Shown: positions 1 through 63,785 of the stretch, one piece after another
Layout of the letters: each line of letters starts with the position of its first letter
Numbering within the stretch: position 1 is the stretch's first letter
Notes under the pieces: model-generated
Database searches by the model: none
What the model was told of the DNA's origin: nothing
Seen by the model: the letters and a program-made list of their open reading frames with translations, nothing else
Source of the DNA: Torpedo marmorata
Taxonomy: Eukaryota
Assembly: GCA_977017645.1 (NCBI GenBank)
Contig: OZ360239.1
Span: forward strand, 7,688,001 to 7,752,000
Direction: 5' to 3'
Length of the DNA stretch: 64,000 nucleotides
Program-made: the position numbers and the translations under genes

Positions 1-1079
1 TTATGGTTTTGACATGTCTCATCTGGTGAAGAATGTCTGCAGACAATGATTTCAGTCCCTGAGAGAAACCATCCAACACTTGCTGTTGCATGCCGCCTTG
101 GCTTCTTAAGCATCATATTTTTGTAACAAAAGAACTACACGCTTGACAAAAGGTTTGCAAGCAACAACCTCAGTGTGGTTAAATGAATGCTTTTTACATT
201 AAGGTGTGAATGAAAGGATGACATTTCTCTGTTCTTCAAATGTCATGAACTGCATGTCAAATAATTTATGTCACTTGACGTTTGTCATAAAAGGTGTTAA
301 ATTTTCTTTAGCTAATACACATGATAAATGCTAAATATTTGACACAGTTTCAACCATCAGTGTCTTTCTGCGAGATACTTTTGCAACAATGTGAGACAGT
401 TTCATCTTTAAGTTTAAAAAAAACAGTGGCAAAAGTAATGTGAGGTACTCCAGGGAATTTTCGTTAAAAATTTATTAACAGAACAGATACAATTATAATC
501 ATATTGTAATCTTAACAAGATGGATTTAGATGGCGAGGAACTTCAGCTTATTAGATATTACCCAGCTGTGGCCACGGTTACTCTATTGGATAATCTATTC
601 CTCTGTTTATTGTGTGGTGCAGTGATCAATGTCAGACAAAAAATCCTCCAAGACCTGTATTTTTATGACCAATCGTTTTCAGCAGCAGCAGAAAACTCCT
701 ATCCTCAACAATCATTAATATTGCATACTAATTAGCATTCAGAGGCCTTCCTGTGCACATTTGCATAAACACCATAGCAAAGACAGGTTGGGGAAGATCC
801 TTGAGTCCATTGAGTCTGACCTGTACACCCATAGAGAGCCTTAAATTGCAAGATTAGGAAGACGTTATTGATAGCAGCACATTTATCAATCGTGTCACAT
901 CCGGGATCTGTTCATCTACACAAGTCAGCAAACAAAGTATCACAGATAAAGTAATTGCACTTACACAATCTGAGATTGTCTCAATGTGCTTTTAAATATG
1001 GTGCTGAAATGTCTCAACTGCACAGCCAATTTCGGCACAGCCAGCTTTCACTGACAACAATTAAATTGGTTACCAGATT

Positions 1080-2585: not shown

Positions 2586-3360
2586 ATAAGAACATAAGAT
2601 ATAGGAGCAGAAGTAGGCCATTCGGCTCATCGAGTCCGCACTGCCATTCCATCGCGAACTGATCAATTCTCCCAATCAGCCCCACTCCCCTGCCTTCTCC
2701 TCATAACCCTGACTATTCAGATACCTATTCATCTCTGCCGTAAATACACCCAATGACTTGGCCTCCACAGCAGCCTGTGGCAGCAAATTCCAGAGGTTCA
2801 CCGCTCTCTGGCTAAAGAAATTCCACCGCATCCCTGTTCTAAATGGGCGCCCTTCAATCCTGAAGTTGTGCCCTCTTGTCCTAGACTCCCCTACCATGGG
2901 AAACAACTTTGCCTCATCTACTCTGTCCAGGCCTTCCAACATTCAAAATACTTCTATGAGGTCCCCCATCATTCTTCTGAACTCCAAGGAGTACAGTCCA
3001 AGAGCAGTGGCGGATTAACCATTAGGCTGAGTAGACTTAAGCCTAGGGGCCCAGAAGGGAGGGGGCCCGGCAGGAGCAGGGACCTCAGGCTCCTGGCAGG
3101 AGTTGTTATCGACCACTTTGGAGACCCCTAATATGTTATTTAACGTAACTTAATGTCACTTTATTCTATTCAACGAAGGGTGGGGCAAGGGGGCAAGGTC
3201 AGGGGGAGCCTTACTAAAGCTCAGCCTAGGGGCCTGGGTGGTAGTTAATCTGCACTGTCCAAGAGCCTTAAACGCTCCTCATATGCTGATCCCTTCATTC
3301 CAGGAATCATTCTTGTAAATCTTCTCTGAAACTTCTCCAATGCCAGCACATCCTTTCTAA
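2586..3360 (-). mobile_element. CR1 LINE 3' fragment interrupted by a hAT MITE
   Basis: ORF 2676-2942 (GLDRVD..LFPMVGESRTRGH..FFSQRAVNLWN.LP) is a CR1 ORF2 C-terminus; ATGTTCTT-type tail. Confidence 0.9.
3005..3257. mobile_element. hAT (Tip100-like) MITE with 8-bp TSD
   Basis: Imperfect TIR CAGTGGCGGATTAAC / GTTAATCTGCACTG; TSD TCCAAGAG at 2997-3004 and 3258-3265; the CR1 sequence resumes after it. Confidence 0.88.
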
Positions 3361-3521
3361 AATGAAATAAAAAAGAGGACATGCTGGAAATTCGATCTGA
3401 AATTAATCAACTCAGAAAGCTGTTATGCATTCATTCAATCTTTAATGAAAATGCTGGATATACACACTGAAATAAAAAGGTTTGCATTTACTTAATGCTT
3501 TCCATAATCTTATGGCAGAGT

Positions 3522-4031
3522 GAAACACGAAAGTCACCCAGAGATGCTGGAGGAACTCAGCCGGTCTTGCAGCGTCTATAGGAGGTAAAGATATATTACC
3601 GATGTTTTGGGCCTGAGCCCTTCTTCAAGGTATAAGCAAATAGCAGGCAGGCATCTGAGCAAAGACTGGGGAGAGAAAGGGGCAAGAATGGGAGGGGGAG
3701 GAGTCCAGACCAACAGACTAAAAGAGTTAATTGGATATAATAAGAGGAATGGTGAGAATTGATTTTCTCTGTGAAAGGAGACAGAGGGAAAAGGGAATAG
3801 AGAGAGAGAGAGAGAGAGAGAGAACTAGAGGAAAGGAGACAGGGGCATGAAGGGGGTGTTTTAACAGAAACTTGAGAAGTCGATGTTAATGCCATCCGGT
3901 TGGAGGGTGCCCAGACAGAAGATGAGGTGTTGTTCCTCCAATTTGCGGGTGGGCTCAATCTGGTAATGCATGAGACCATGGACAGACATGTCAGCAAGGG
4001 AATGGGATCGGGAATTGAAATGGGTGGCCAC
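3522..4031 (-). mobile_element. Penelope-like element 3' end (GIY-YIG endonuclease C-terminus, pyrimidine-rich UTR, hammerhead-like terminus)
   Basis: 4031-3861 translates VATHFNSRSHSLADMSVHGLMHYQIEPTRKLEEQHLIFCLGTLQPDGINIDFSSFC*, a PLE endonuclease C-terminal pattern in a frame not shown in the ORF track; followed by CCTTGAAGAAGGGCTCAGGCCCAAAACATC and the CTGAGTTCCTCCAGCA arm. Confidence 0.85.
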
Positions 4032-8604: not shown

Positions 8605-8905
8605 GTATCAGAGCCAGCACCACCAGGCTGAGGAACAGCTTCTTCCCACAGGCAGTGAGAATGCTGAACGACCAAAGGAACTGCTCACACTAACCATCTG
8701 AGACTTTCATTTGAACAAAGCAATATCTATTTATTTATTTATTTATTTATTTTTATAGATATCATACTTGTCCTGCATATGTATTGTTTGTCTGTATGTG
8801 TGTTAAGTCTGGTTGTATGTCTGTGTGTTTTTCACCAAGGACCGGAGAACGCTGTTTCGTCGGGTTGTACTTGTACAATCAGATGACAATAAACTTGACT
8901 TGACT
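8605..8905 (+). mobile_element. Rex1/Babar-like LINE 3' end
   Basis: IRASTTRLRNSFFPQAVRMLN C-terminus; 3' UTR with (TTTA)n and tail AATAAACTTGACTTGACT; same family at 25340-25792, 28078-28310 and 47220-47365. Confidence 0.8.
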
Positions 8906-9003
8906 TTATCTTTGCTATATAAGGACACTGTTTGACCTGCTGAGTTTCTCCAGCGTTGTGTTTTTACTTCAACCACGGTGTCTGCAGACTTTCATGTTTT
9001 ACT
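8905..9003 (+). mobile_element. Penelope-terminus mini-element, 5'-truncated (no hammerhead core)
   Basis: CTTTGCTATATAAGGACACTGTTTGACCTGCTGAGTTTCTCCAGC...GTCTGCAGACTTTCATGTTTTACT matches 55649-55791. Confidence 0.85.
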
Positions 9004-14074: not shown

Positions 14075-14589
14075 TATTAGGTGCTATTCATGTGATGATA
14101 TGGAGTGTTTTTCTCTGTTAAAAGGAGCTAAACAAAGGAGCGGTATTCCAGCAATTTAACGCCACGTGCACATTACCCAAAACCACCCCCAAGCAACGTT
14201 ACTTCTGACGATCAGAATACGCGATAAAAGTACCAAGAGTAATTAAAATATGACAAAATAAAATATGGTCGAACTAATGTATTCACTCAGCGAGTGTAAA
14301 CTGTTTTCTCGGGGAGAAAAGAATGTCAAGATCCCAACTGCATAATTAAATCCGTCTTTGATTATAAATACAAAATATGCGGCTCAAAGACGAGTTTGGT
14401 TTCGAAAATTTCACACATTCCATCGAATGCTCAAACGTATCTCTCTTTCAAGCTTTATACCTGCTGCAACACACATATACGTTTATACGTTTCGGTATTT
14501 AACCTCTAGTAAAAACGAAATACAAAACAAAACTACATGGAAATATAACAGACATTACAATTTTGTTAAATAACCAAAGCATTTTCATG

Positions 14590-14722
14590 CCTTGATGAAG
14601 GCCCGAAACGTCGGTTATGTATCTTTATCTTTGCTACATAAAGAACGCTGCGAGACTTGCTGAGTTTCTCCAGCATTTTTGTGTGAACAATCACAGCATC
14701 TGCAGATTTTCTTGTTTAACTC
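14590..14722 (+). mobile_element. Penelope-terminus mini-element with hammerhead-like core (stem II deleted)
   Basis: CCTTGATGAAGGCCCGAAACGTCGGTTATG...GCTGAGTTTCTCCAGCA...TCTGCAGA. Confidence 0.85.
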
Positions 14723-27827: not shown

Positions 27828-28050
27828 TAAAACACACACAACTGCTGGAGGAACTCAGCCGGTCTTGCGACGTCCATGGGGGGTGAAGATTTATAACCAA
27901 CGTTTCGGGCCTGAGTTCCTCTTCAAGGTAAGGCTCAGGCCGGAAACAACGGTTATATTTCTTTACCTCCCGTCGACGCTGCGAAACCTGCTGAGTTCCT
28001 CCAGCATTTTTGTGTTTTTACAACATCTGTAGGCTTTCATGTTTCACTCT
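27828..28050. mobile_element. Penelope-terminus fold-back element
   Basis: Arms TGCTGGAGGAACTCAGC / GCTGAGTTCCTCCAGCA enclose two back-to-back hammerhead-like remnants centred near 27925. Confidence 0.85.
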
Positions 28051-31307: not shown

Positions 31308-31451
31308 TCTTTGATGAAGGGCTCAAGCCCGAAACGTCGGTTATGTATTTCTACCTTTGCTACATAAAAGACACTGTTTGACCTGCTGAGTTCTCCAGCT
31401 TTTGTGTTTTTTACTACATTATTACGGTGTCTACAGATTTTCGTGTTTACT
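31308..31451 (+). mobile_element. Penelope-terminus mini-element with hammerhead-like motif and 9-bp TSD
   Basis: TTGATGAAGGGCTCAAGCCCGAAACGTCGGTTATG; TSD TCATGTAAC at 31299-31307 and 31452-31460. Confidence 0.88.
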
Positions 31452-32913: not shown

Positions 32914-33180
32914 ACACAAAAAATGCTGGAGAAACTCAGCACGTCACGCAGCGTTCTTTATGTAGCAAAGATAAAGATACATAACCTACGTTACGGGCTT
33001 GAGCCCTTCATCAAGGTATGAGCAAATTGCAGGCAGGCGCCTGAATAAAAAGATGCATACACTTGTAGACACGTGTATCAATGTAAAAAACACAATGCTG
33101 GAGAAGCTCAGCGGGTTATACAGTATAGCAAAGATAAAGACACATAACCAACGTTTCGGGCTTGAGGCCTCCATCAAGGT
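32914..33180 (-). mobile_element. Two adjacent Penelope-terminus copies
   Basis: AATGCTGGAGAA(A/G)CTCAGC arms at ~32922 and ~33094, each followed by a mutated hammerhead-like core. Confidence 0.85.
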
Positions 33181-37741: not shown

Positions 37742-38833
37742 TATCTGACCTGCTGAGAATTTGCAGCTATTTTTAGTTTTACAGTATGTTTGTTTGACAT
37801 GGTANNNNNNNNNNNNNNNNNNNNNNNNNNNNNNNNNNNNNNNNNNNNNNNNNNNNNNNNNNNNNNNNNNNNNNNNNNNNNNNNNNNNNNNNNNNNNNNN
37901 NNNNNNNNNNNNNNNNNNNNNNNNNNNNNNNNNNNNNNNNNNNNNNNNNNNNNNNNNNNNNNNNNNNNNNNNTTAAGATCATTCAGCCTGTCGTGCCTGG
38001 GCTTGTTTTTTTGAAAGAGTGATAGATATCAAATCACGCGTCATAACGCAGCATTATTTCCCTTTTGAGGTACGTATCCAATTTGAAAGTTGCCATTGAA
38101 TCTGCCTCTCCGCCCCTTTCAAACCGGGGACTCGAATTAATAACAACTCGCTGCAAAGATGAAATTTTCGCCTCCTCTGCGGTTGTTTTGTCAATTGCCT
38201 TGAGACCGTGGCCCACTGGCACTGCAAATAAAGACTCCTTGTTTACTACACGAAAGTAGGCGTGAGTCTGAACAACTCCACATTAGACCTTCACTCCTCA
38301 GCATAACCATCAATAGCCTCTCATATATTCAACTCGCAGAGGGCTCAGGCGGTGCTTCATCGGTGTTGGGACCAGTTGGACTGTTGTTGAGATATTCGCC
38401 AGCTTTAGCCAGAGAAGTTGTTGGGTTCGAATTGCATTACTTCATTCGGCGATTTTCTTTTCTCCCTTCTCCCTCGACGTTCCGCTTTCAGGGGCCCTGG
38501 GATCCGACGCGCACCCATCATTGCAGGCTGGTTTTGAAAAATGTGGGAAGGGCTTGGAATTGGCTATTGGATACTCGAAGGACAATAAATTGGGTCGGTA
38601 AGCTAATCGGTGATCACTTGGAGTGGAGGTACGCAGTTACTCAGAGAGGAACCACGCAAAGTTTGAGTGAACATCGAGCTGGAGGGACTCAGCGGGTCAA
38701 CCAGCATCCAGGGATACAATTAGCCAGTCGAGTATATACCATTTATCGAGACTCCACCACCCCACAGTATCCACCCAGTCCCACAGTGCCTGCAGGACGT
38801 TCCCTGCTTCCTACTGCCTTAATGAAGGAATTA

Positions 38834-38960
38834 CCTTGATGAAGGGCTCAAGCCCGAAACGTTGATTATGTATCTTTATCTTTGCTACATAAAGTACACT
38901 CCAGAGTTTCTCCAGCATTGTGTTTTTACTTCAATCACGGTGTCTGCAGACTTTTTTATT
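38834..38960 (+). mobile_element. Penelope-terminus mini-element nested in an older fold-back (~38675-39120)
   Basis: CCTTGATGAAGGGCTCAAGCCCGAAACGTTGATTATG..TCTCCAGCATTGTG..GTCTGCAGAC. Confidence 0.85.
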
Positions 38961-41900
38961 TTATTTCCCCACTGCCTTAAGTACGTGGTCAAGGGTGTTT
39001 GGAACAACGTTTTCTTGACTGGCTATTATTTCTCTCCGTGGACGCTGCGTGACGCGCGGAGGGCCCTTCCACAGCTTCTCATTGTTTGTTCCAGATCCCA
39101 GCAACTGTGGTTTTTGTATTCCTCACGCAAATATGAAACTTATCAACATGAGACATACTTGTCCATAACAGTGCAATATCATTGATACTATTCATTTCCT
39201 CTCCTCTGTTTTATTTTTTTAAATTTCCAGTTGAAAAGCAATTGAAATGTCTTTCGTGGGATCTTGCTAACCCTTGGTGTTCATTTGACCTTGCCGTTTG
39301 TTTTGGAACAAAAATTATAGAAAAAGGTTTGCATTGCAGAGTTTCGGGTCAGGTGATGTGATACCAATCTGAAACTCCAATTGCATTGCAAACACTCACC
39401 AGCTCTTGGTTAAAGTGGGTCCGCGGGCATCGCCACTCTGTCGCCACTTTTATTTACTCGGATTCAATGCAAGGATCTTATCCTGCTAATGCGGGTGTAT
39501 CTCACCGGTAGTGAAGCAGCCGGGAAAGTGGGCCCGTCTTCTGGACAGTCACCACTTAAAGACCATCCTATTGTTTCCTACTAATTACCTCCCCATTAGA
39601 CCCTCGGACCCACAATGGTAGCAACAGGTCCCATCTTATCTCTTCGGGATGATCGGTGGATGTGTCTGTCCCTGTAAGCAAGCCGTGTCTGCTGAACACA
39701 TTGACAGGTCCAAATGAGAATAATATATGACTACCTTTTCAAGCTAATCACAGTGCCGGTGTAAGCAACACTCTCTGCTGTCGCATCCATTTTTAACATC
39801 TATTTTTACTGTGTTTTTATTACTATTAGTCCTTGCCTGTTTGAATAATGAGGCCCACGTTTCTGGTCGTAACTTGTGGGGCCACGTAAACACGCTGCTT
39901 AGCCCGTTTCCTTTTTTAAATCTATTCCACCGAAACCTTTATCACGTGTTTATTTCACAGTTCTGCAAGATCGCAGAAGTGGTTCGTAAATTAGGATAAC
40001 AAACAGCTGGTTCACTACTAAACGAAGAGCATCAGGCTTGCAACGGGAGACTGGGACATGACACAAAGTGTGCCCACCACTGCAGCTGGGAAGTCTAAAT
40101 TTAATTAAATGCATTTCGAATGCAAAGTTGGTATTAACATTTGGGCAATAGCACAGCCGGGTTGTTTTTTTAAAAATAAATGTGATCACTACTGTCGGTC
40201 AGAGGTAGATATCTATCAATGCCTCGCGGCCTGGCCAGAATTACCTCCAGACCTAGTGCACTGTGTAGTGTCATCTTGTTGGTTTCTTAGTTCAAGGACA
40301 GGTAAGGATAATTGAGGGTGACCCTATATACCAGAAGTGAGCGAAGAATTAAGACGACAGATCCGTTGTTAGGTGGAAAATCGACACATTTTCTTCCAAA
40401 ATATGGACGAAATTTATGAAAATATGGACAAAATATATGAAAAAAGAGCAAGGAAGTTTGTTGCCCATACTCCCCTCAACCCTCACAGATGGAAACCCCA
40501 TCTCGATTTCTAACCCCACTCCAATTTTCCGTTTCTTCTCAAATATATAAAACAAAAACAAAACGCGGTTCACGAGACTGTTTGCCATCTGCTGTTCGAT
40601 CTATTGCAAAGGAACCGAGAGTTACTGTTTGGGTAACGGAATCTGGAGTTTTCCAGAGCCGTGGCTCACAACCAGAAAGAATAATGTAGCGCGTCGAATT
40701 GATCAGAACTGTGAAATGTAGTGAAGATGGTTAATGAACTCCCATTACTGCTTCATTTGAACTTAACAGTGGTGCGGATCTATAAACTCTCTTGTTTGGG
40801 ATCAAAGGGAGAGAGAGAGAGAGAGAGATGTTTCTGTGTTTGACAAACAGACCCCCGTGAGTGTGGCTGATGTACTTGCAAAATTCTATTTACCTGAAGG
40901 TATGATTTCTGTATGCACGTATAATTCCCATGTGTTTACAGGTTTGCGTATATTCCTGTTACAGCCTGAATGTATTTCAAATAGTGCATGCACGTGCGTG
41001 GAGCATTATTCCATGTGAATGAGTGCGTGAGAATGCCTTCTGGGACAGATGAACACACTCCGAATACTTTGCATTCACGAATGAAACATTCTTCAAATAT
41101 TACGAGAAAGTAAACCCGGTTCTTTATATAATTAAATCAATCGTTTTTAAAAAATATATAATAAAATCTGATTACATTAGCAAACTATTTTAATATGCAA
41201 TAGAATGTGCTGAGATAATTTTCTAAAATAATACTTTGTATAAATTCATAGTTAAAATACTATCAATAATTTCGTTAAGGGAAGGGTTCATGCGAGCGAC
41301 TCTGCTGGAAAAGAGAAGTCTGATCTAACTGACTTCAGAGCTATGTCTGTGAGGTATTACATGTAGTTCAGTGGAACATGACATTTCCGGCTTTCTCGCC
41401 ACCGCGTTCAGTTTTAGTTTTGCACGTTATGGTTTTCCTTGCACAATTGTGAAAGAAACTTTTCCCATTCAATTGGGGGGTTCCGGTTCTTTAAAACGAG
41501 GACCAGCTCGTCAAATAACAAAACATAAAGCCCATTAACGCTCTCGAGCAATTTTCCGTGCCTGCTGTAAATTGTGGTTTCAATGCACTGTTTTACTTCC
41601 CTCTCGCCTGTTCTCTGCCTCCCCCTTCCCATTTCTGTGCCTCGCAAAGTTGCAACGAGGAGGGACTTGAAACTTTTTTTAAAAATCCCAGCACAAGTTG
41701 ACAGACTTGCAACAATAATAATGCCGCCCGGGCCAGTGTACCTCCCGCTGAATCCTTGGCCTTAAGGCGGCGAGTTGCTGCGGGAACCTCCCCTCTCCCT
41801 AATCAGACGCTTTTCACCGAGGACACACACACAAAAGTTAAGATGGAGACAAAAAAAGCAAACAGATTTTGGGCATCGTTCTATTAATCAGCCTATTAAA

Positions 41901-44622: not shown

Positions 44623-45987
44623 CTGCAGAGAAAAAAAAACCGCCCATTAATAGCATGATTGTCATAAACCCTAGGCTTCTCCACCTCCTACAAGAGGGAA
44701 TGAGATTTCGGGATCCGGGAGTAAATTTGTTTAAGATTGCATCGATAATGAATTCAGAGTTATGGGATTAAAATCCACTTCAAAACAGACAGATTTAAAG
44801 AGGTGCTTCTCACAATGTCTGGAATTCAGGAACTGCATTTAGTCTAAAGTAATATTTTAGACTGCTTAATCATTACGCTGATTTAAATTCAAATTGAGTG
44901 TTAAACTCTCACCGCTCGCATTATATAGAAAATCATTTCAATTACGCTGAATGAAATAAAATCACCCTGTTTCCTCACAGGATTTTTTGTGAAGGCAACA
45001 TTTTCATGAAAGTACAAGGTTTTGCCTACTTCGAAGTGTATGATTCGACAACGGTACAGAACTAGACCTCAGTATGATACGTTAACACCAAAGCACAACA
45101 GTAAATGTCTTCAGCAAATACTTGAGTTTATAACACGTTTGAATAACTGTGGTAAGCGATCACTCTGAACATAGATCGAAAATAAGGACACGTATTTTTG
45201 CAGCTTGTTTGAACCTACATCTGAACGCATTGTAACAACAGCAGCAATAATAAAAATATAGGCGTGACAGGAACGTAAGCGATCAGAAATTACAGCCTTA
45301 ATTATTATTTGAATAAGACGAGTTATAATTTGTTATAAATCGTTATACTTCGAGGTTGCCAGTGGAAACCAACCCCACTTTCCTGAATAAGACTTTTCAA
45401 CATAAAACACCCCCCTAACTGAATCGTCATTTGTCCCCACGTAATTAAAACTAGTTCGAGCCCTCAGAGTTTTTAAACGTTCTCGAAAATAAATTTAAGG
45501 AGTGATTCTGGACCCAAACGAGGTTAATTTTGACGCCATATCAATAGGCTCGGCGAGGGCTGTATAACTTCCATCGAAGCGATAATAGAATTAGCAGGTT
45601 TTTACATTGGAACTCAGCATCAAAACAAATGCTGCAATAAAACACGAAAGTCTGCAGACACCGTGATTGAAGTAAAAACATAATGCTGGAGAAACTCAGC
45701 AGGTTAAACAGTGTATTTTATATAGCAAAGGTACCTTGATGAAGGGCTCAAGCCCGAAACGTTGGTTATGTATTTTTATCTTTGTTATATAAAGGACACT
45801 GTTTGACCTGCTGAGTTTCTCCAGCATTGTGTTTTTACAAATACTGCAACGCCGGCTTTGCAAAAGCACATTTTTAAAACAGTTGCAACAGGGCCGTGGT
45901 ATTAAACTGGAAAAAGCAGAGATATACGACATTGTTTAACAGACCAATGAAATGCTTTACAACAAAAACGTGTTTTCGAATACTTAC
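44623..45987 (-). other. nkx2-3: nkx2-3 intron (1365 bp, GT-AG, phase 1)
   Basis: GTAAGT donor and polypyrimidine tract plus CAG acceptor; a single intron upstream of the homeobox is typical of NK2 genes. Confidence 0.93.
45638..45836. mobile_element. Penelope-terminus fold-back with hammerhead-like loop, inside the nkx2-3 intron
   Basis: ~59-bp inverted arms (45672-45730 / 45780-45838); loop ACCTTGATGAAGGGCTCAAGCCCGAAACGTTGGTTATG; TSD ACAAAT(G/A)CTGCAA at 45625-45637 and 45837-45849. Confidence 0.9.
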
Positions 45988-46800: not shown

Positions 46801-46979
46801 ATGCAAAGTATGATTCCAAATGAAACCTTTTAATCCTTGCTTTGAGACTGTAGATATTAAGTGCCCGGTCAAGCTGTTCTTCATAAAAATATAGATATTT
46901 AAACAAAGCTCGAAAACAAATATACGTTTTACTAAATCTCATACTTGCATGATAGCCATTCCTGTTAAATAGAAAACAG

Positions 46980-47175
46980 AGTAAAACACAAAAGTCTGCA
47001 GACACCGTGGTTGAAGTAAAAACACAATGCTGGAGAAACTCAGCAGGTCAAACAGTGTCCTTTATATAGCAACGTTAAAGATACATAACCGACATTTCGA
47101 GCTTGAGCCCTTCGTATCTTAATTTTTGCGATATAAAGTACACCGTTTGGCTGTTTCTTCAGCATTGTGTTTTTA
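46980..47175. mobile_element. Penelope-terminus fold-back upstream of the nkx2-3 promoter
   Basis: Full arm 46980-47112 (core truncated) followed by a degraded inverted arm. Confidence 0.85.
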
Positions 47176-53629: not shown

Positions 53630-55648
53630 ATGCTTTATGAGAGCAAATATATTACCGGAGCTCTAACACGATGCCGTCATAAGGGGGTAAATAATTAATA
53701 GACTTTGTGGATCTACATCTATGAACGACCAGGTCATCATTTTTGCATTTTATACGAGGAATAGTATCTTCTCCGATGTGACCCACGTTTCGGATGTGCG
53801 AAAAGAGCAAGGTTCCTTGTTTCAGAGTAATATTGCAAATACCAAGCAGACGGAATGCATGTTAAAGTTTTCCACTGTGTCTCGCTACACGTGTTATTGC
53901 ATTATTCTGTAAGGGCGATGGAGACTTGCTATCCTTTATCCCTTACAGACGCCATTCCAAACAACACGAGTAAAGATGTTTCAATTCATGTTGTTTATTC
54001 TGCGGATACATGAGCATCCGGGGCCTTTAAATGATTTTTCTCCCTCCCTTCCAACAGTATAAACAAAAATTCTCACTGCCTCGCTGCGGTCAGCTGGTAA
54101 TAAATCACAGGACACTTTTTGCTGGGAAAAAGTCTGTTGCCGAGAGCTTTCCGCGTTTTTGCTGTCATGCGATTAGGAACTTTTTTTTTCCGCTCTATTA
54201 TTTCCGAACCGAGCCGCGCTGTTTCCAAATTCTTGAAAATCGAAACTGTAAGAATTGAACCTCGTGTTGTCTAACTTCCTAAATATAAATTACCAGCGAA
54301 TTTATAAATATCATGCTCGTAATCATAGTCGTCACAATATATACTGCTACCTAATCGTGATATCTATTTATGTGTGCGCGCAAAGCTGTGTTTGTGTCTG
54401 TAAATATGTAAATATATGCGATAAATATATGTAAATATATGTTTGTATGTATGTGCGTTTGCGCCAGTAAGTAAATATATAATGTATACGCACAGAGAAG
54501 TTTATGTTGCTAAATACATAATCTACCTAATTGTTTGTGGGTCTGTGTATAAATACATCGATACTAGCATGGATCCGTGGATATATATATAATTTGCCCC
54601 AATGTTTCAGTGCGCCTGTACAGAAAAGTGAATGGGCGCTAATTTTACCGTCGTACATAATAGTTATTGGATCTTGGAATCACCATTTGCGATGCAATGA
54701 GACCAGGCGATAAAAATGCCCTTTCTGTTTAAAATAATTTCCCTTAATTTTATTCATGCCAATCTTCCCCTCGGCAATAATCACTAATTAAACAAATTTA
54801 AAAATAGGAGTAATCTTTAAAAAAAAGTATAGTGGTACAACTACCGGTATATGGATCTACAGAACATGTACTCAAAAGCAAAGCCGCTCAGCGAAATTAG
54901 TGATCAGGGTAACTGAGGTGATTTCAGATACTTTAAACTAACTAACTAACCTTTCAATTACATTGTAAACATTTGTTATTTTCCAACAACCAGCAACGTC
55001 TTCAATTTTATCAGCGCACAATGAGACCTATAATATCAAATACCTCAGCAATAATCACAATATCCTCCCCCCCCCCCAATAAATATGGGTTCTGTGAGCG
55101 ATACCGTTTGTGGTGTTTTCACTTGATTTCTCTTCCAACGTTGGGAGATGCGGCCGATCATCTCTTGGCTGGATAACGCGGAGTCGTCGTATTATCAGGG
55201 ATCCCTACGGCACTTGCATGTGTGCATCCTTTACCTGGCTCAGAGGGGTGTGTAAAAAAAGCAAAGAGGAAAGCTACACCTGTCACATAACTCGGCGCCA
55301 CTGGCAAATGCTTGGACGCTACTGAGACTCCGGCAGAAGACGGCTTGATAATCCCCATCCGCTTGCCATCAACAATATCTTGTTTAGATTGAAAACTCCG
55401 CGCTCTTCACGGCGCTTCTACCCCAGACTGTTAGTGCAGACAAATAGCTTTTGTCTTTAAATGGAGAAATCGAGACACGAGCTATTTTTTTCCATGATGC
55501 AATACCTCGCCGACAGTCTACAACCTTTGGTAAAGAAACAATAGAAATAAGTACTTCTTCCCCCCTGCCTCTAATGCACCCCAACCTCCCCAAAATGTTT
55601 CGTTTTACCATGGCGTTGCAGAGACCTGAACAGTATGCACAACAGTAC

Positions 55649-55791
55649 AGGAGTAAAACACGAAAGTCTGCAGACACGGTGATTGAAGTAAAAACACAAT
55701 GCTGGAGAAACTCAGCAGGTCAAACAGTGTCTTTTATGTTGCAAAGATAAAGATACATAACCGACGTTTCGGGTCTGAGCCCTTCATCAAG
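55649..55791 (-). mobile_element. Penelope-terminus mini-element (143 bp) with hammerhead-like motif and 12-bp TSD
   Basis: Minus strand starts CCTTGATGAAGGGCTCAGACCCGAAACGTCGGTTATG; TSD GCACAACAGTAC at 55637-55648 and 55792-55803. Confidence 0.92.
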
Positions 55792-58499
55792 GCACAACAG
55801 TACTTATGCATTAATCTATTAACATATACAGGTAATATTAATTAACAGGACATTGTTGATGAGGTTGGGGGTCCATACTGGTTTCGTCACCTTTTCACGT
55901 ATTTTACCTGATCCTCCACCACTATATGTACAAAACTGTCCATAATCTGCAAAGATAAACCGGCACAGTTGAAATAATCTCAAGTATAGGCGTTACAAGT
56001 TTTTAACTTCTCCCTATCAATTCCGACAAGCACTACAATTAAGAGTTTAAGGGGAAAGCGTATTTTAATTTAATCCACCCTCTTTATTTGTAAATTGTTT
56101 TGCGAATAGAACGGGGTTATTGGAGGCACAGGAGGGACCTGCAGATGCTGGAATCTGGAGCAGTTGTTCGATATTTCCTTGTCTCGCCTCAAACACATGA
56201 AAGATCCAACAACTGGCTTTTATGAATATACATGCAAATAAAAAAATAGGGCTGCAATCCCGAAGACGAGGTGGGTAACGTTGAGGCGTTTAAAAGGTCC
56301 CACGCGGTGGAGTTGGCAATGATTAAAAAAAATAGTACTGAACTTTCGCGGTCGTAATAAATCACGCCGAAAGATGCGCTATATGTTCATGGGAAGATTG
56401 TTCTGAATGGAGTCACGTCTATTAATCTTTATTTTTTAAATCCGCTTGGACCAGTGTAAATCTGTGGGACATCGCGTAACCAGCTTTGCGTGTATCCTGT
56501 TTGGAGAAACAGAGAACTATTACAACAAACTTCACGAACAGCAATGACGAGTGCTCAGAAGAATGAAGATGCTCTTCTTAGCAAATGTGAACTTAAACGC
56601 AGAATAATAAATCGATCCTGTCCGCCTGCTGCGACAGGCCCTGATAACAAATGTTAGCGAATTCTCAATTCCCCGCTCTCCAGGCTAACTCATGACACAC
56701 ATATAATCCTTCCAACGATCATTGTTTCCATTCTAATGGACGTGTTTGTCCGTCAGCTCACAGCTTCCAGAGAAGCGCATGTTAAAGTGAAATAGAACCA
56801 AATTCCATATAGAAAATTGTTCTCATTCCTCACGGAGTCCGGAATCTCCACGTCAACAACCCGTCAGATTTGGCAGGAACTTTTGGAAAATTGATGTGTG
56901 CTAACAAACTTCAATAATTCATAGAGGCGACTCCTTCAAAAACATGGATATCCTCAGAATTTCCACGCGGCCATTCGGCCCACGAGCCCTCGCCTATCAT
57001 CAGCGCCCATCAACAATAATCCTGCACGTGGCTGCCGAACGATTGCAAGAACTGGTAATAGGTTAAACTCCACGAAAATTCTTTCCCAGCATATGTACGT
57101 TTATAGATGTGGCGAATTTATAGCGAATAAGAATTTGTTTGGAATTTGATTTTGTTTTCCATTTTATTCTCCTCCGGTTAGTTTAATGTAATTTAGCGAT
57201 GTATGGTCGAATTATTTAATGCATGATTGTTGAGCTTCAGTCAGGGTTAAACAATCATATAATTTGAACTAGCAGCTCTTGATTATATTTTTTGCTCGTT
57301 TTAATGTCCAGGGGGTTGAAAGAAGTGTGTTCCCGCTAACATCTCTGATCTGAATGGCACACCTGCAAAATTTAGGTTTTGAGCCGGTTAATACATTACA
57401 TTTGATTTATTCTGCCTGTTATTACATCCTTTACTGGAATTCTGGTTCTTTATTGTGTACAGTACTTCTATCACCCATGGGTGTGCGTTTAAATATTTGG
57501 TTGCACGCTTTTAGGAGCGCGAGAAAATGATTAGAAATTGCCCGGTCAACAGTTGAAATCTGACTTCCGAGGAGACAAAACATGTCCGAAATCCCAACAA
57601 ACCGGCGTTTCAACATCTGTCGAATGATGGCTGACAAATATAATCTCTGTGTTATAGCCTTGATGTTACGTTTCACGTTTCAACCCTATCTTTCAAATCA
57701 TATCCCTGAGCCGTGAACTTCTCACAATATCCATTTACAGTGATCCGGCCCAGAGCTGCCATCGGCATGGATAAATTGGAAACATGGTTGGATAAAGCGA
57801 GGGTTCATCTGTAGGCAGCAAAGAACTGTTGATGTTAAATAAAAAGCAAATTCGGGAATAAAATATTCTGAAGGATAAAAGTGACCTTTCACAGAAATTG
57901 CACGTTGCAAATAAACCACTAGGAATGTAACGATCGTGCATTTCTGTAGCGTGTTGAATTTGAGATTCGCAGCGGGGTTATACTGTGTGGGTGGACAATT
58001 AATTCCAAGGGCTTTCGGAATCCCGTGAAAGTCCAGGAGGGACCCAACCTTCGGTGGCATGCCTCAGCCGGGTGAAGGCTGAGTTATTTTTAATCTCTGA
58101 ATCCGTCAATATTTGCTCTAGAAAATCAACATGCCCACATACACAGACTTTCTTCGAATGATAGAAATATGTGTGCCATCACGGACTTTTTAAAATTCCA
58201 TTTGTAGCCCTATTTGAAATGTCTTCCAGAATATTATTTTAACATCAGCTGAATATTGCGATTTAACATAAAGAGAACATTGTGATTAATAACAGGATTG
58301 GATAGTTTGTCTATTTTATGTGGAGCAGAATATTGGTATACATGGCGCAACCTAAAGAAAATAGCGACAGGAAGCCCCAATAACACGTTGCCCATGACTG
58401 CCGATGGAATTACTGTTAATAAAAAATTAAAAAATAAATATAACTATATAAACACACACATACATAAATCAATAACTCTATAACACGGGAGATATGTAC

Positions 58500-63479: not shown

Positions 63480-63785
63480 TGCATTTTCCTAAGACCTCTG
63501 CCTCTTCCTCATCACCTCCTAGCTTCTTATATCATTCCCATTTCTTTCTCCCCCCACCCATCTTTTTTCCCCCTCCAACCTGCATTCACTATCACATGAC
63601 AGCTCCTGCTGTCCCCTCCACCATCTTTTTATCCTGGCTTCTGCCCTCTTTTTTCCCAGTCCTGATGAAGGTGTTTGGCCCGAAACGTTGACCGTCTATT
63701 GTCTACAATGAATACTGCCTGAGTTCCTCCATCATTTTGGACGTTGCTCCAGTTTTCCAGCATTTGCGGCCTTTCTTGTTTGCCA
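63480..63785 (+). mobile_element. Penelope 3' end: pyrimidine-rich UTR plus hammerhead-like terminus with canonical CTGATGA
   Basis: CCAGTCCTGATGAAGGTGTTTGGCCCGAAACGTTGACC..TGAGTTCCTCCA..TTCCAGCATTTGC. Confidence 0.75.

Follow-up and report, generated by a model that had tools for sequence, protein, structure and literature searches.

The window analysed here is a stretch of 64,000 nucleotides from the Torpedo marmorata genome (assembly GCA_977017645.1, contig OZ360239.1, positions 7,688,001 to 7,752,000, forward strand), and positions without a sign or locus name refer to it. On its minus strand, at 55651..55792, lies a copy of a short repeat module, the 3′ terminus of a Penelope-like element (PLE) made up of a pseudo-long terminal repeat (pLTR) and a 35-bp tail. 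Such short copies are almost certainly 5′-truncated stubs of an autonomous Neptune-type PLE, and an excess of 5′ ends at −3/−4 is likely to reflect where the copied RNA begins, probably its transcription start. We number the module from hammerhead position 3 (+1, window 55790, minus strand), and the focal stub runs from −1 to about +141. It lacks poly(A), as the initial annotation had noted, and lies within a 12-bp target site duplication (TSD; left copy 55637..55648, right copy 55792..55803, the latter overlapping the element start by 1 nt). In tandem junctions, the element body that follows the pLTR opens with the sequence of the tail (+105..+139, 55652..55686). A minimal type-I hammerhead motif is assigned to 55756..55792 from sequence and covariation. 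Its parts, all on the minus strand, are the core with U at position 3 (U3; 55790-55784), stem II with one mismatch (55782-55771), GAAAC (55770-55766), GUC (55765-55763), the predicted cleavage site between +28 and +29 (55763/55762) and the 3′ strand of stem I (55762-55756). Most of the 5′ strand of stem I is gone from the focal copy, and its predicted fold is not a hammerhead.

Copies extended from the module reach up to about 2.9 kb and hold a reverse transcriptase (RT), a C-x4-C-x2-C linker (read in L095), a GIY-YIG endonuclease, a pyrimidine-rich 3′ untranslated region (UTR) and the module. Pfam and PDB searches with the decayed open reading frame (ORF) copies gave no direct match; 13 homologues at 26-46% identity carry PF00078 (RVT_1), and both of the two tested carry PF01541 (GIY-YIG). 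The window holds an older 5′-truncated copy (3520..4031, minus strand) with the GIY-YIG C-terminus (4031-3864), the 3′ UTR and the module, flanked by an 11-bp TSD with one mismatch. Its C-terminus matches a full PLE protein with 43% over 51 aa, which upholds the earlier observation that at 3522-4031 the module follows a PLE endonuclease; the origin from a PLE terminus proposed there is upheld by the long copies, which encode RT and GIY-YIG before the module. At all 20 of 20 loci holding the body start, the module lies directly upstream, and the tail is the first part of the body. Since the body start is always preceded by the module and the tail is the body start itself, the module is the pLTR plus the tail. 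Judged by sequence, it is the 3′ end of an autonomous Neptune-type PLE, and the stubs almost certainly derive from such an element.

The long copies have the organization of endonuclease-bearing (EN+) PLEs, namely one ORF with RT plus GIY-YIG at the C-terminus (motifs taken from the long copies) and pLTRs recognized by partial tandems, inverted truncated copies and a 30-40 bp tail. The CX2-5CxxC linker between RT and endonuclease places the element with Neptune/Nematis, an assignment based on the linker and not on a tree. The ATG in the hammerhead core runs into a stop; in frame with the ORF, the earliest ATG comes about 40 nt past the tail. In the 5′ part of the ORF of L131-L160, the N-terminal coding region has tandem repeats of about 60 bp that vary, together with a low-complexity run rich in proline. 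L013 and L030 are the same PLE stub, whose 3′ UTR is shortened and which sits within a larger duplicated segment or other repeat; their flanks are 96% identical.

A profile search with nhmmer gave 32 module matches in the window (37 with a looser threshold), in agreement with the more than 20 copies annotated before. In 1.2 Mb of stretches outside the window, the density was about 10 per 64 kb (190 matches), i.e., the window is about threefold denser. Genome-wide (6.2 Gb), an exact module 40-mer occurs 9,397 times and a 27-nt module motif at least 64,152 times, with 0 control matches; extrapolated from the 190 matches in 1.2 Mb, the copies would number in the order of a million. TSDs of at least 9 bp flank 32 of 88 simple young copies, compared with 1.2 in shuffled flank pairs, and TSD lengths in these 88 range from 7 to 15 bp with a mode of 12. 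In the window, we found TSDs of 9 bp (31311), 12 bp (55791) and 13 bp (38834, 28336). The variable lengths annotated before therefore hold for these three values, whereas a 16-bp TSD was not reproduced among the window copies. The observation behind the initial annotation is confirmed, and its interpretation is partly supported, as detailed below.

The ends of 154 young copies were mapped, 91 of them taken in genome order from exact matches to an internal 40-mer and 63 drawn from 1.26 Mb of contiguous stretches, window included. From 257 anchors screened, 102 were removed by filters (3′ end before +99, fewer than 40 aligned nt, or less than 85% identity) and 1 as a duplicate. The 5′ ends fall upstream of −6 in 88 copies (to −2561), inside the module in 34 and within −6..+2 in 32, with a peak at −5..−2 and a mode at −4/−3. 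The stop rate is 3.3% per nt in the peak, against about 0.4-0.5% per nt for 60 nt on each side (p = 8e-16), and 0.1-0.2% per nt further upstream. This 7-8-fold peak (7.4-fold without window copies) is seen in each of the samples taken alone, and it persists when inverted copies are left out and when two flagged mis-calls are removed. The clustering of 5′ ends a short way upstream of the core, which had been noticed in a few window copies, is thus non-random. Most copies pass it, as 88 of the 120 copies reaching +2 continue past −4.

At the predicted cleavage site, the stop rate equals the background (0.37% per nt at +25..+32). Self-cleavage as the source of the 5′ ends is therefore rejected, as had been suggested earlier. 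Splicing as the source of the peak is also rejected because there is no AG at −5/−4 and no common upstream exon. Genome-wide searches gave 527 matches at −4 and 106 matches with a purine at +28; among 100 matches listed for each, tallied by eye, 56 and 34, respectively, were true starts. The ratio of truncated to mutated-but-extended copies among the matches listed was 36:11 at −4 and 34:50 at +29 (by eye; Fisher p = 1e-4), and about 7% of the copies reaching −4 stop there genome-wide. In a younger subfamily, tallied by eye among 100 matches listed, there are 11 independent stops between −33 and +11, and 7 of them belong to the peak, which has a lower weight (about 7 of 98 copies). In the first 8 Mb of G000:C1, the youngest subfamily, with a GUC triplet and a U-G pair closing stem I, dominates, and truncation near the core is far rarer than in the GUU subfamily. 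The 3′ ends are bimodal (+101..108 and +132..144), and the tail is present in 54% to 61% of copies (94 of 154 in the mapped set).

The A at −4 corresponds to +1 of a YYANWYY motif, the weak consensus of initiators, and the motif is kept in five of six subfamily groups while stem I covaries. A second initiator-like site at −36 accounts for 5 of 18 nearby starts, a post hoc and weak signal. Genome-wide, 5′-body sequence stands immediately before the start in 3 of 56 and 3 of about 58 peak cases (about 5%); hence, the body adjoins the template in use.

The hammerhead motif itself is conserved in the family. The core boxes are kept in all six subfamily groups, and stems I and II change in pairs, so that the minimal type-I layout annotated before is borne out by sequence. 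In 55 distinct natural copies, 83% of 385 cells of the two stems are paired, a value reached by 0 of 500 shuffles and above all slid controls, in a test that is inflated by kinship; 36 cells carry a change on both sides of a stem pair. The covariation between subfamilies claimed earlier is supported at this level, and two pair-level measures did not exceed the shuffles (301/500 and 369/500). U3 had been taken as a mark of the young subfamily, but it is the usual state, clear in four of six groups (30/33, 27/30, 25/31 and 9/14); C3 dominates in one group (11/14), and one group is mixed. A U3-containing variant exists among rare hammerhead cores (PMC3088659, PMC7151607). A search of the module with Rfam at gathering thresholds gave 0 matches, and the isolated motif is predicted to fold weakly (−10.8 to −12.4 kcal/mol, z −1.6 to −2.3).

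Among 100 matches listed at +29, 16 are internal deletions ending at +29 (by eye), and many such deletions remove +10..+28 via GG microhomology, with loss of stem II and the catalytic boxes. The 3′ UTR segment −32..−26 is predicted to pair with +17..+23 on the stem II/GAAA side, more weakly in the youngest subfamily. The hammerhead fold may thereby be hindered in the 3′ pLTR yet able to form in RNA that begins at −4.

Composite insertions bear on the nature of the peak. We collected 12 composites, chosen as best matches to body queries; in each, a first segment (start a, module, 200 to 440 nt of 5′ body) is joined to a second one (start a′, module). The two starts lie within 8 nt in seven of the 12 and within 2 nt in five (permutation p = 0.00015), the matching pairs being −6/−5, −4/−2, −52/−50, −16/−15, +37/+36, −52/−45 and +38/+31. 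Three composites lie within one TSD each (10-17 bp). As two segments of one insertion start at the same variable position, the 5′ end of a template RNA is indicated, and stalling fits poorly. In inverted pairs, exactly one arm carries the tail in 37 of 40 (48% expected, p = 2e-9), and the starts of the two arms correlate (rho 0.47, p = 0.004), a pattern that fits a pair of subunits working from the two start sites on a single RNA. Short untemplated A-rich runs occur at 2 of 11 composite jump sites examined (L344 1141, L355 1775), as if RT had jumped to oligo-adenylated RNA 3′ ends. L351, L352 and L353 (G000:C78, 11.34-11.68 Mb) are composites with different ends and bodies that are 94-97% identical, hinting at insertion near a local source copy.

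We consider it probable that the 5′ peak marks the end of an RNA; that this end is a transcription start and that the pLTR is renewed by jumps is about an even proposition, both being read from genomic sequence. The proposed route would begin with RT/endonuclease, likely a dimer, priming at two internal sites at the pLTR-ORF junction near the 5′ end of the transcript. This would resemble the Anolis PLE in vitro, where RT starts at two internal sites near the ORF start and requires downstream RNA, and where hammerhead cleavage is not required (PMC11167929). The transcript would come from a dispersed promoter with a dominant start at −4/−3, and RT would run off at the RNA 5′ end. The cDNA could then integrate as a stub (about 7-21% of copies). 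Alternatively, RT could jump downstream on the RNA, either seamlessly into the 3′ pLTR by homology, giving long copies and partial tandems with a regenerated pLTR, or visibly into the 5′ body, giving composites. Homology-guided jumps into the 3′ pLTR would leave no trace while rebuilding partial tandems, and the composites would most simply be read as two rounds of copying on a single RNA whose 5′ end is fixed, the first from an internal site and the second after a downstream jump. The hammerhead, while conserved, would not set genomic ends.

Minus-strand strong-stop DNA of long terminal repeat (LTR) retroelements is primed near the RNA 5′ end, runs off and is transferred to the 3′ terminal repeat in the first strand transfer. 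By analogy, and with confidence somewhat short of even, the stubs can be viewed as strong-stop-like cDNAs that ran off at a start on stem I, with the pLTR rebuilt by a template jump as in retroviral strand transfer and matching-start doublets as failed jumps. The likeness covers priming near the 5′ end, run-off and transfer to the 3′ terminal repeat. The Torpedo primer, in contrast, would be nicked target DNA, no RNase H domain was seen and the short product integrates.

Several results weigh against a transcription start with jump-based renewal. None of 16 independent long-bodied copies starts in the peak, and 13 of them start upstream of −6; therefore, the model requires efficient homologous transfer, repeated jumps or a circular template. 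Five of the 12 composites lack matching starts, their choice as best matches may matter, three come from a single 340-kb stretch of one contig, and the one at L352 requires bridging a later 266-bp insertion. YYANWYY also occurs at −36 and −15 within the 181 nt scanned. An extra G before the start, as a cap signature, is at most suggestive (22/56, p = 0.02; 13/47, p = 0.45 without self-derived junctions). The RNA 5′ ends are deduced from genomic ends, and the run data covering the module are assembled contigs from four runs guessed to be RNA. In Penelope of D. virilis, the start lies some 120 nt upstream of the hammerhead, and an intron separates the two (PMC2377424, PMC4209133).

With the same autonomous origin, the end at −4 could also result from 5′-to-3′ trimming of uncapped RNA, stopped at the stem I base of a folded or protein-bound hammerhead. 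The peak (−5..−2) coincides with the 5′ base of stem I, trimming would account equally well for the matching composite starts, and the PLE protein aids hammerhead folding in vitro (PMC11167929). The weak predicted fold of the isolated motif (given above) speaks against it, however, and the initiator-like motif and the slight G excess suit a capped start better, and we regard trimming as an unlikely yet serious alternative.

Slightly less likely still is that RT primes in the 3′ pLTR and pauses and drops off at about −4 on a continuous template, a form of the stalling idea of the initial annotation. A partial pause predicts that most copies pass −4, as they do, and long copies would need no jump. 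Stalling at the fold, however, predicts ends near +35 or +20 and not after the whole fold has been copied, and is thus disfavoured: RT meets stem I from +35, and the stop rate there, on the 3′ side of the hammerhead, is at background (0.31-0.37% per nt). Moreover, the composites stop twice at the same variable position, their matching starts at −52, −16 and +37 are not pause sites, and their jumps land in 5′-body sequence that is absent from a 3′ pLTR template. As about 40% of copies lose the tail in each round, it would also have to be regained from the 5′ junction.

A variant of the transcription-start reading replaces the homologous jump with circular unit-length RNA templates, formed by hammerhead cleavage and ligation (model of PMC4209133). 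These would give long copies and partial tandems, and the stubs would come from uncleaved linear RNA. The hammerhead is conserved and covarying, genomic ends are lacking at the cleavage site as predicted for a sealed circle, and none of the 16 long-bodied copies starts in the peak. Nevertheless, we judge this variant improbable: a U3-G8 core without stem III predicts slow cleavage, low activity is reported for such motifs (PMC4209133), no Anolis reads began or ended at the cleavage site (PMC11167929), and the composites show that non-homologous jumps occur.

The SINE-like (short interspersed element-like) non-autonomous family of about 140 bp proposed initially, with its own source copies and PLE mobilization in trans, has a defined 5′ peak, TSDs and high copy number in its favour but is largely refuted and very improbable, as the peak class is a minority, the short copies lack private alleles and clustering, the subfamilies tested mix both lengths, and RNA downstream of the priming sites, which the Anolis protein requires (PMC11167929), is missing from the stubs. 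Only 32 of 154 copies (about 7 of 98 in the youngest subfamily, by eye among the matches listed) fall in the peak, so most copies do not share one length, and 88 of 154 run into the 3′ UTR, endonuclease and RT. When 32 short copies were compared with 83 long ones, no allele was diagnostic of either class (lowest Fisher p = 0.13 across 26 tests). Short copies do not cluster (nearest-neighbour p = 0.50; short-short distance 12.5 vs. short-long 12.0), and every subfamily tested holds both classes. The stubs are made anew from sources common to long copies.

Published EN+ PLEs of the Neptune/Nematis type (PMC8557442) share with the Torpedo element the C-terminal GIY-YIG, the CX2-5CxxC linker, pLTRs from partial tandems, heavy 5′ truncation, an adjacent inverted truncated copy, a 30-40 bp tail at one end and the pLTR hammerhead; a sharp 5′-end peak and matching-start composites are described only for the Torpedo element, as far as the accessible part of that source goes. 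Metazoan PLE minimal hammerheads (PMC4209133) likewise have an unpaired base between 9 and 10.1, G10.1-C11.1, a palindromic 15.2-16.2 and no stem III, and most occur as single, probably truncated copies. They differ in core and stem II, as the Torpedo core is mostly U3-G8 (a U3-A8 variant is given in PMC4209133) and its stem II has 4 bp instead of 7-8. In Poseidon PAc of Anolis carolinensis (PMC11167929), two internal RT start sites similarly bracket the tail near the ORF start, insertion does not depend on hammerhead cleavage and a dimer is predicted; the PAc ORF, however, begins within the hammerhead, whereas a stop follows the ATG in the Torpedo core. Non-LTR retrozymes (bioRxiv 10.64898/2026.07.22.740005) are also short, non-coding and pLTR-derived, with a type-I hammerhead and dispersed monomers, but are defined by tandem arrays of at least two units. 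The Torpedo copies are dispersed stubs and inverted pairs without their own lineage: same-orientation module neighbours abut only 4 of 154 copies, and no hammerhead array was seen in the 1.26 Mb of stretches, of which one scan covers 0.86 Mb.

Truncation, pLTRs, tails, inverted copies, solo pLTRs, initiator-like motifs in pLTRs and minimal hammerheads are published (PMC8557442, PMC3846280, PMC4209133, PMC2377424). A full-text literature search, with Repbase and Dfam outside it, gave no report of the Torpedo family or of strong-stop products, a 5′ peak or matching-start composites in PLEs; the genomic ends in S2 of PMC11167929 may bear on the peak. The feature is real and the repeat class ordinary; its value is that of a useful mechanistic footprint. 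Rebuilding of the PLE pseudo-LTR has been termed unexplained (PMC2377424), the in vitro study leaves the steps after priming open, and its text does not state the route of the cDNA from the 5′ junction to the 3′ end (PMC11167929). The abundant genomic copies provide a predicted transcript start at nucleotide level and a countable class of failed jumps; thus, the question of pLTR rebuilding becomes directly testable.

The remaining window copies illustrate the range of forms. Three head-to-head pairs are present: 45638..45848 (arms +42..+137 and −3..+103, tail on one arm, 13-bp TSD with one mismatch), 46979..47175 (arms +6..+140 and +35..+102) and an older one at 27834..28048. On the plus strand lie a stub of the youngest subfamily starting at about +1 (31310..31449, 9-bp TSD), a stub starting at −3 with a few extra bases at the 5′ junction (38832..38963, 13-bp TSD with one mismatch), a stub that begins at +39 and lacks the hammerhead (8904..9003) and a copy of an old subfamily with stem I GUC/GAC (63656..63782). 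A further plus-strand copy (14585..14722) lacks part of stem II, starts at −6 or somewhat further upstream and has no TSD that we could find. Two adjoining minus-strand copies at 32917..33180 start at −2 (33180, 13-bp TSD) and −35 (33050). Finally, pieces of another repeat lie at 2600-3010 and 3260-3350; a GC-rich insert whose ends look inverted interrupts them at about 3010-3260.

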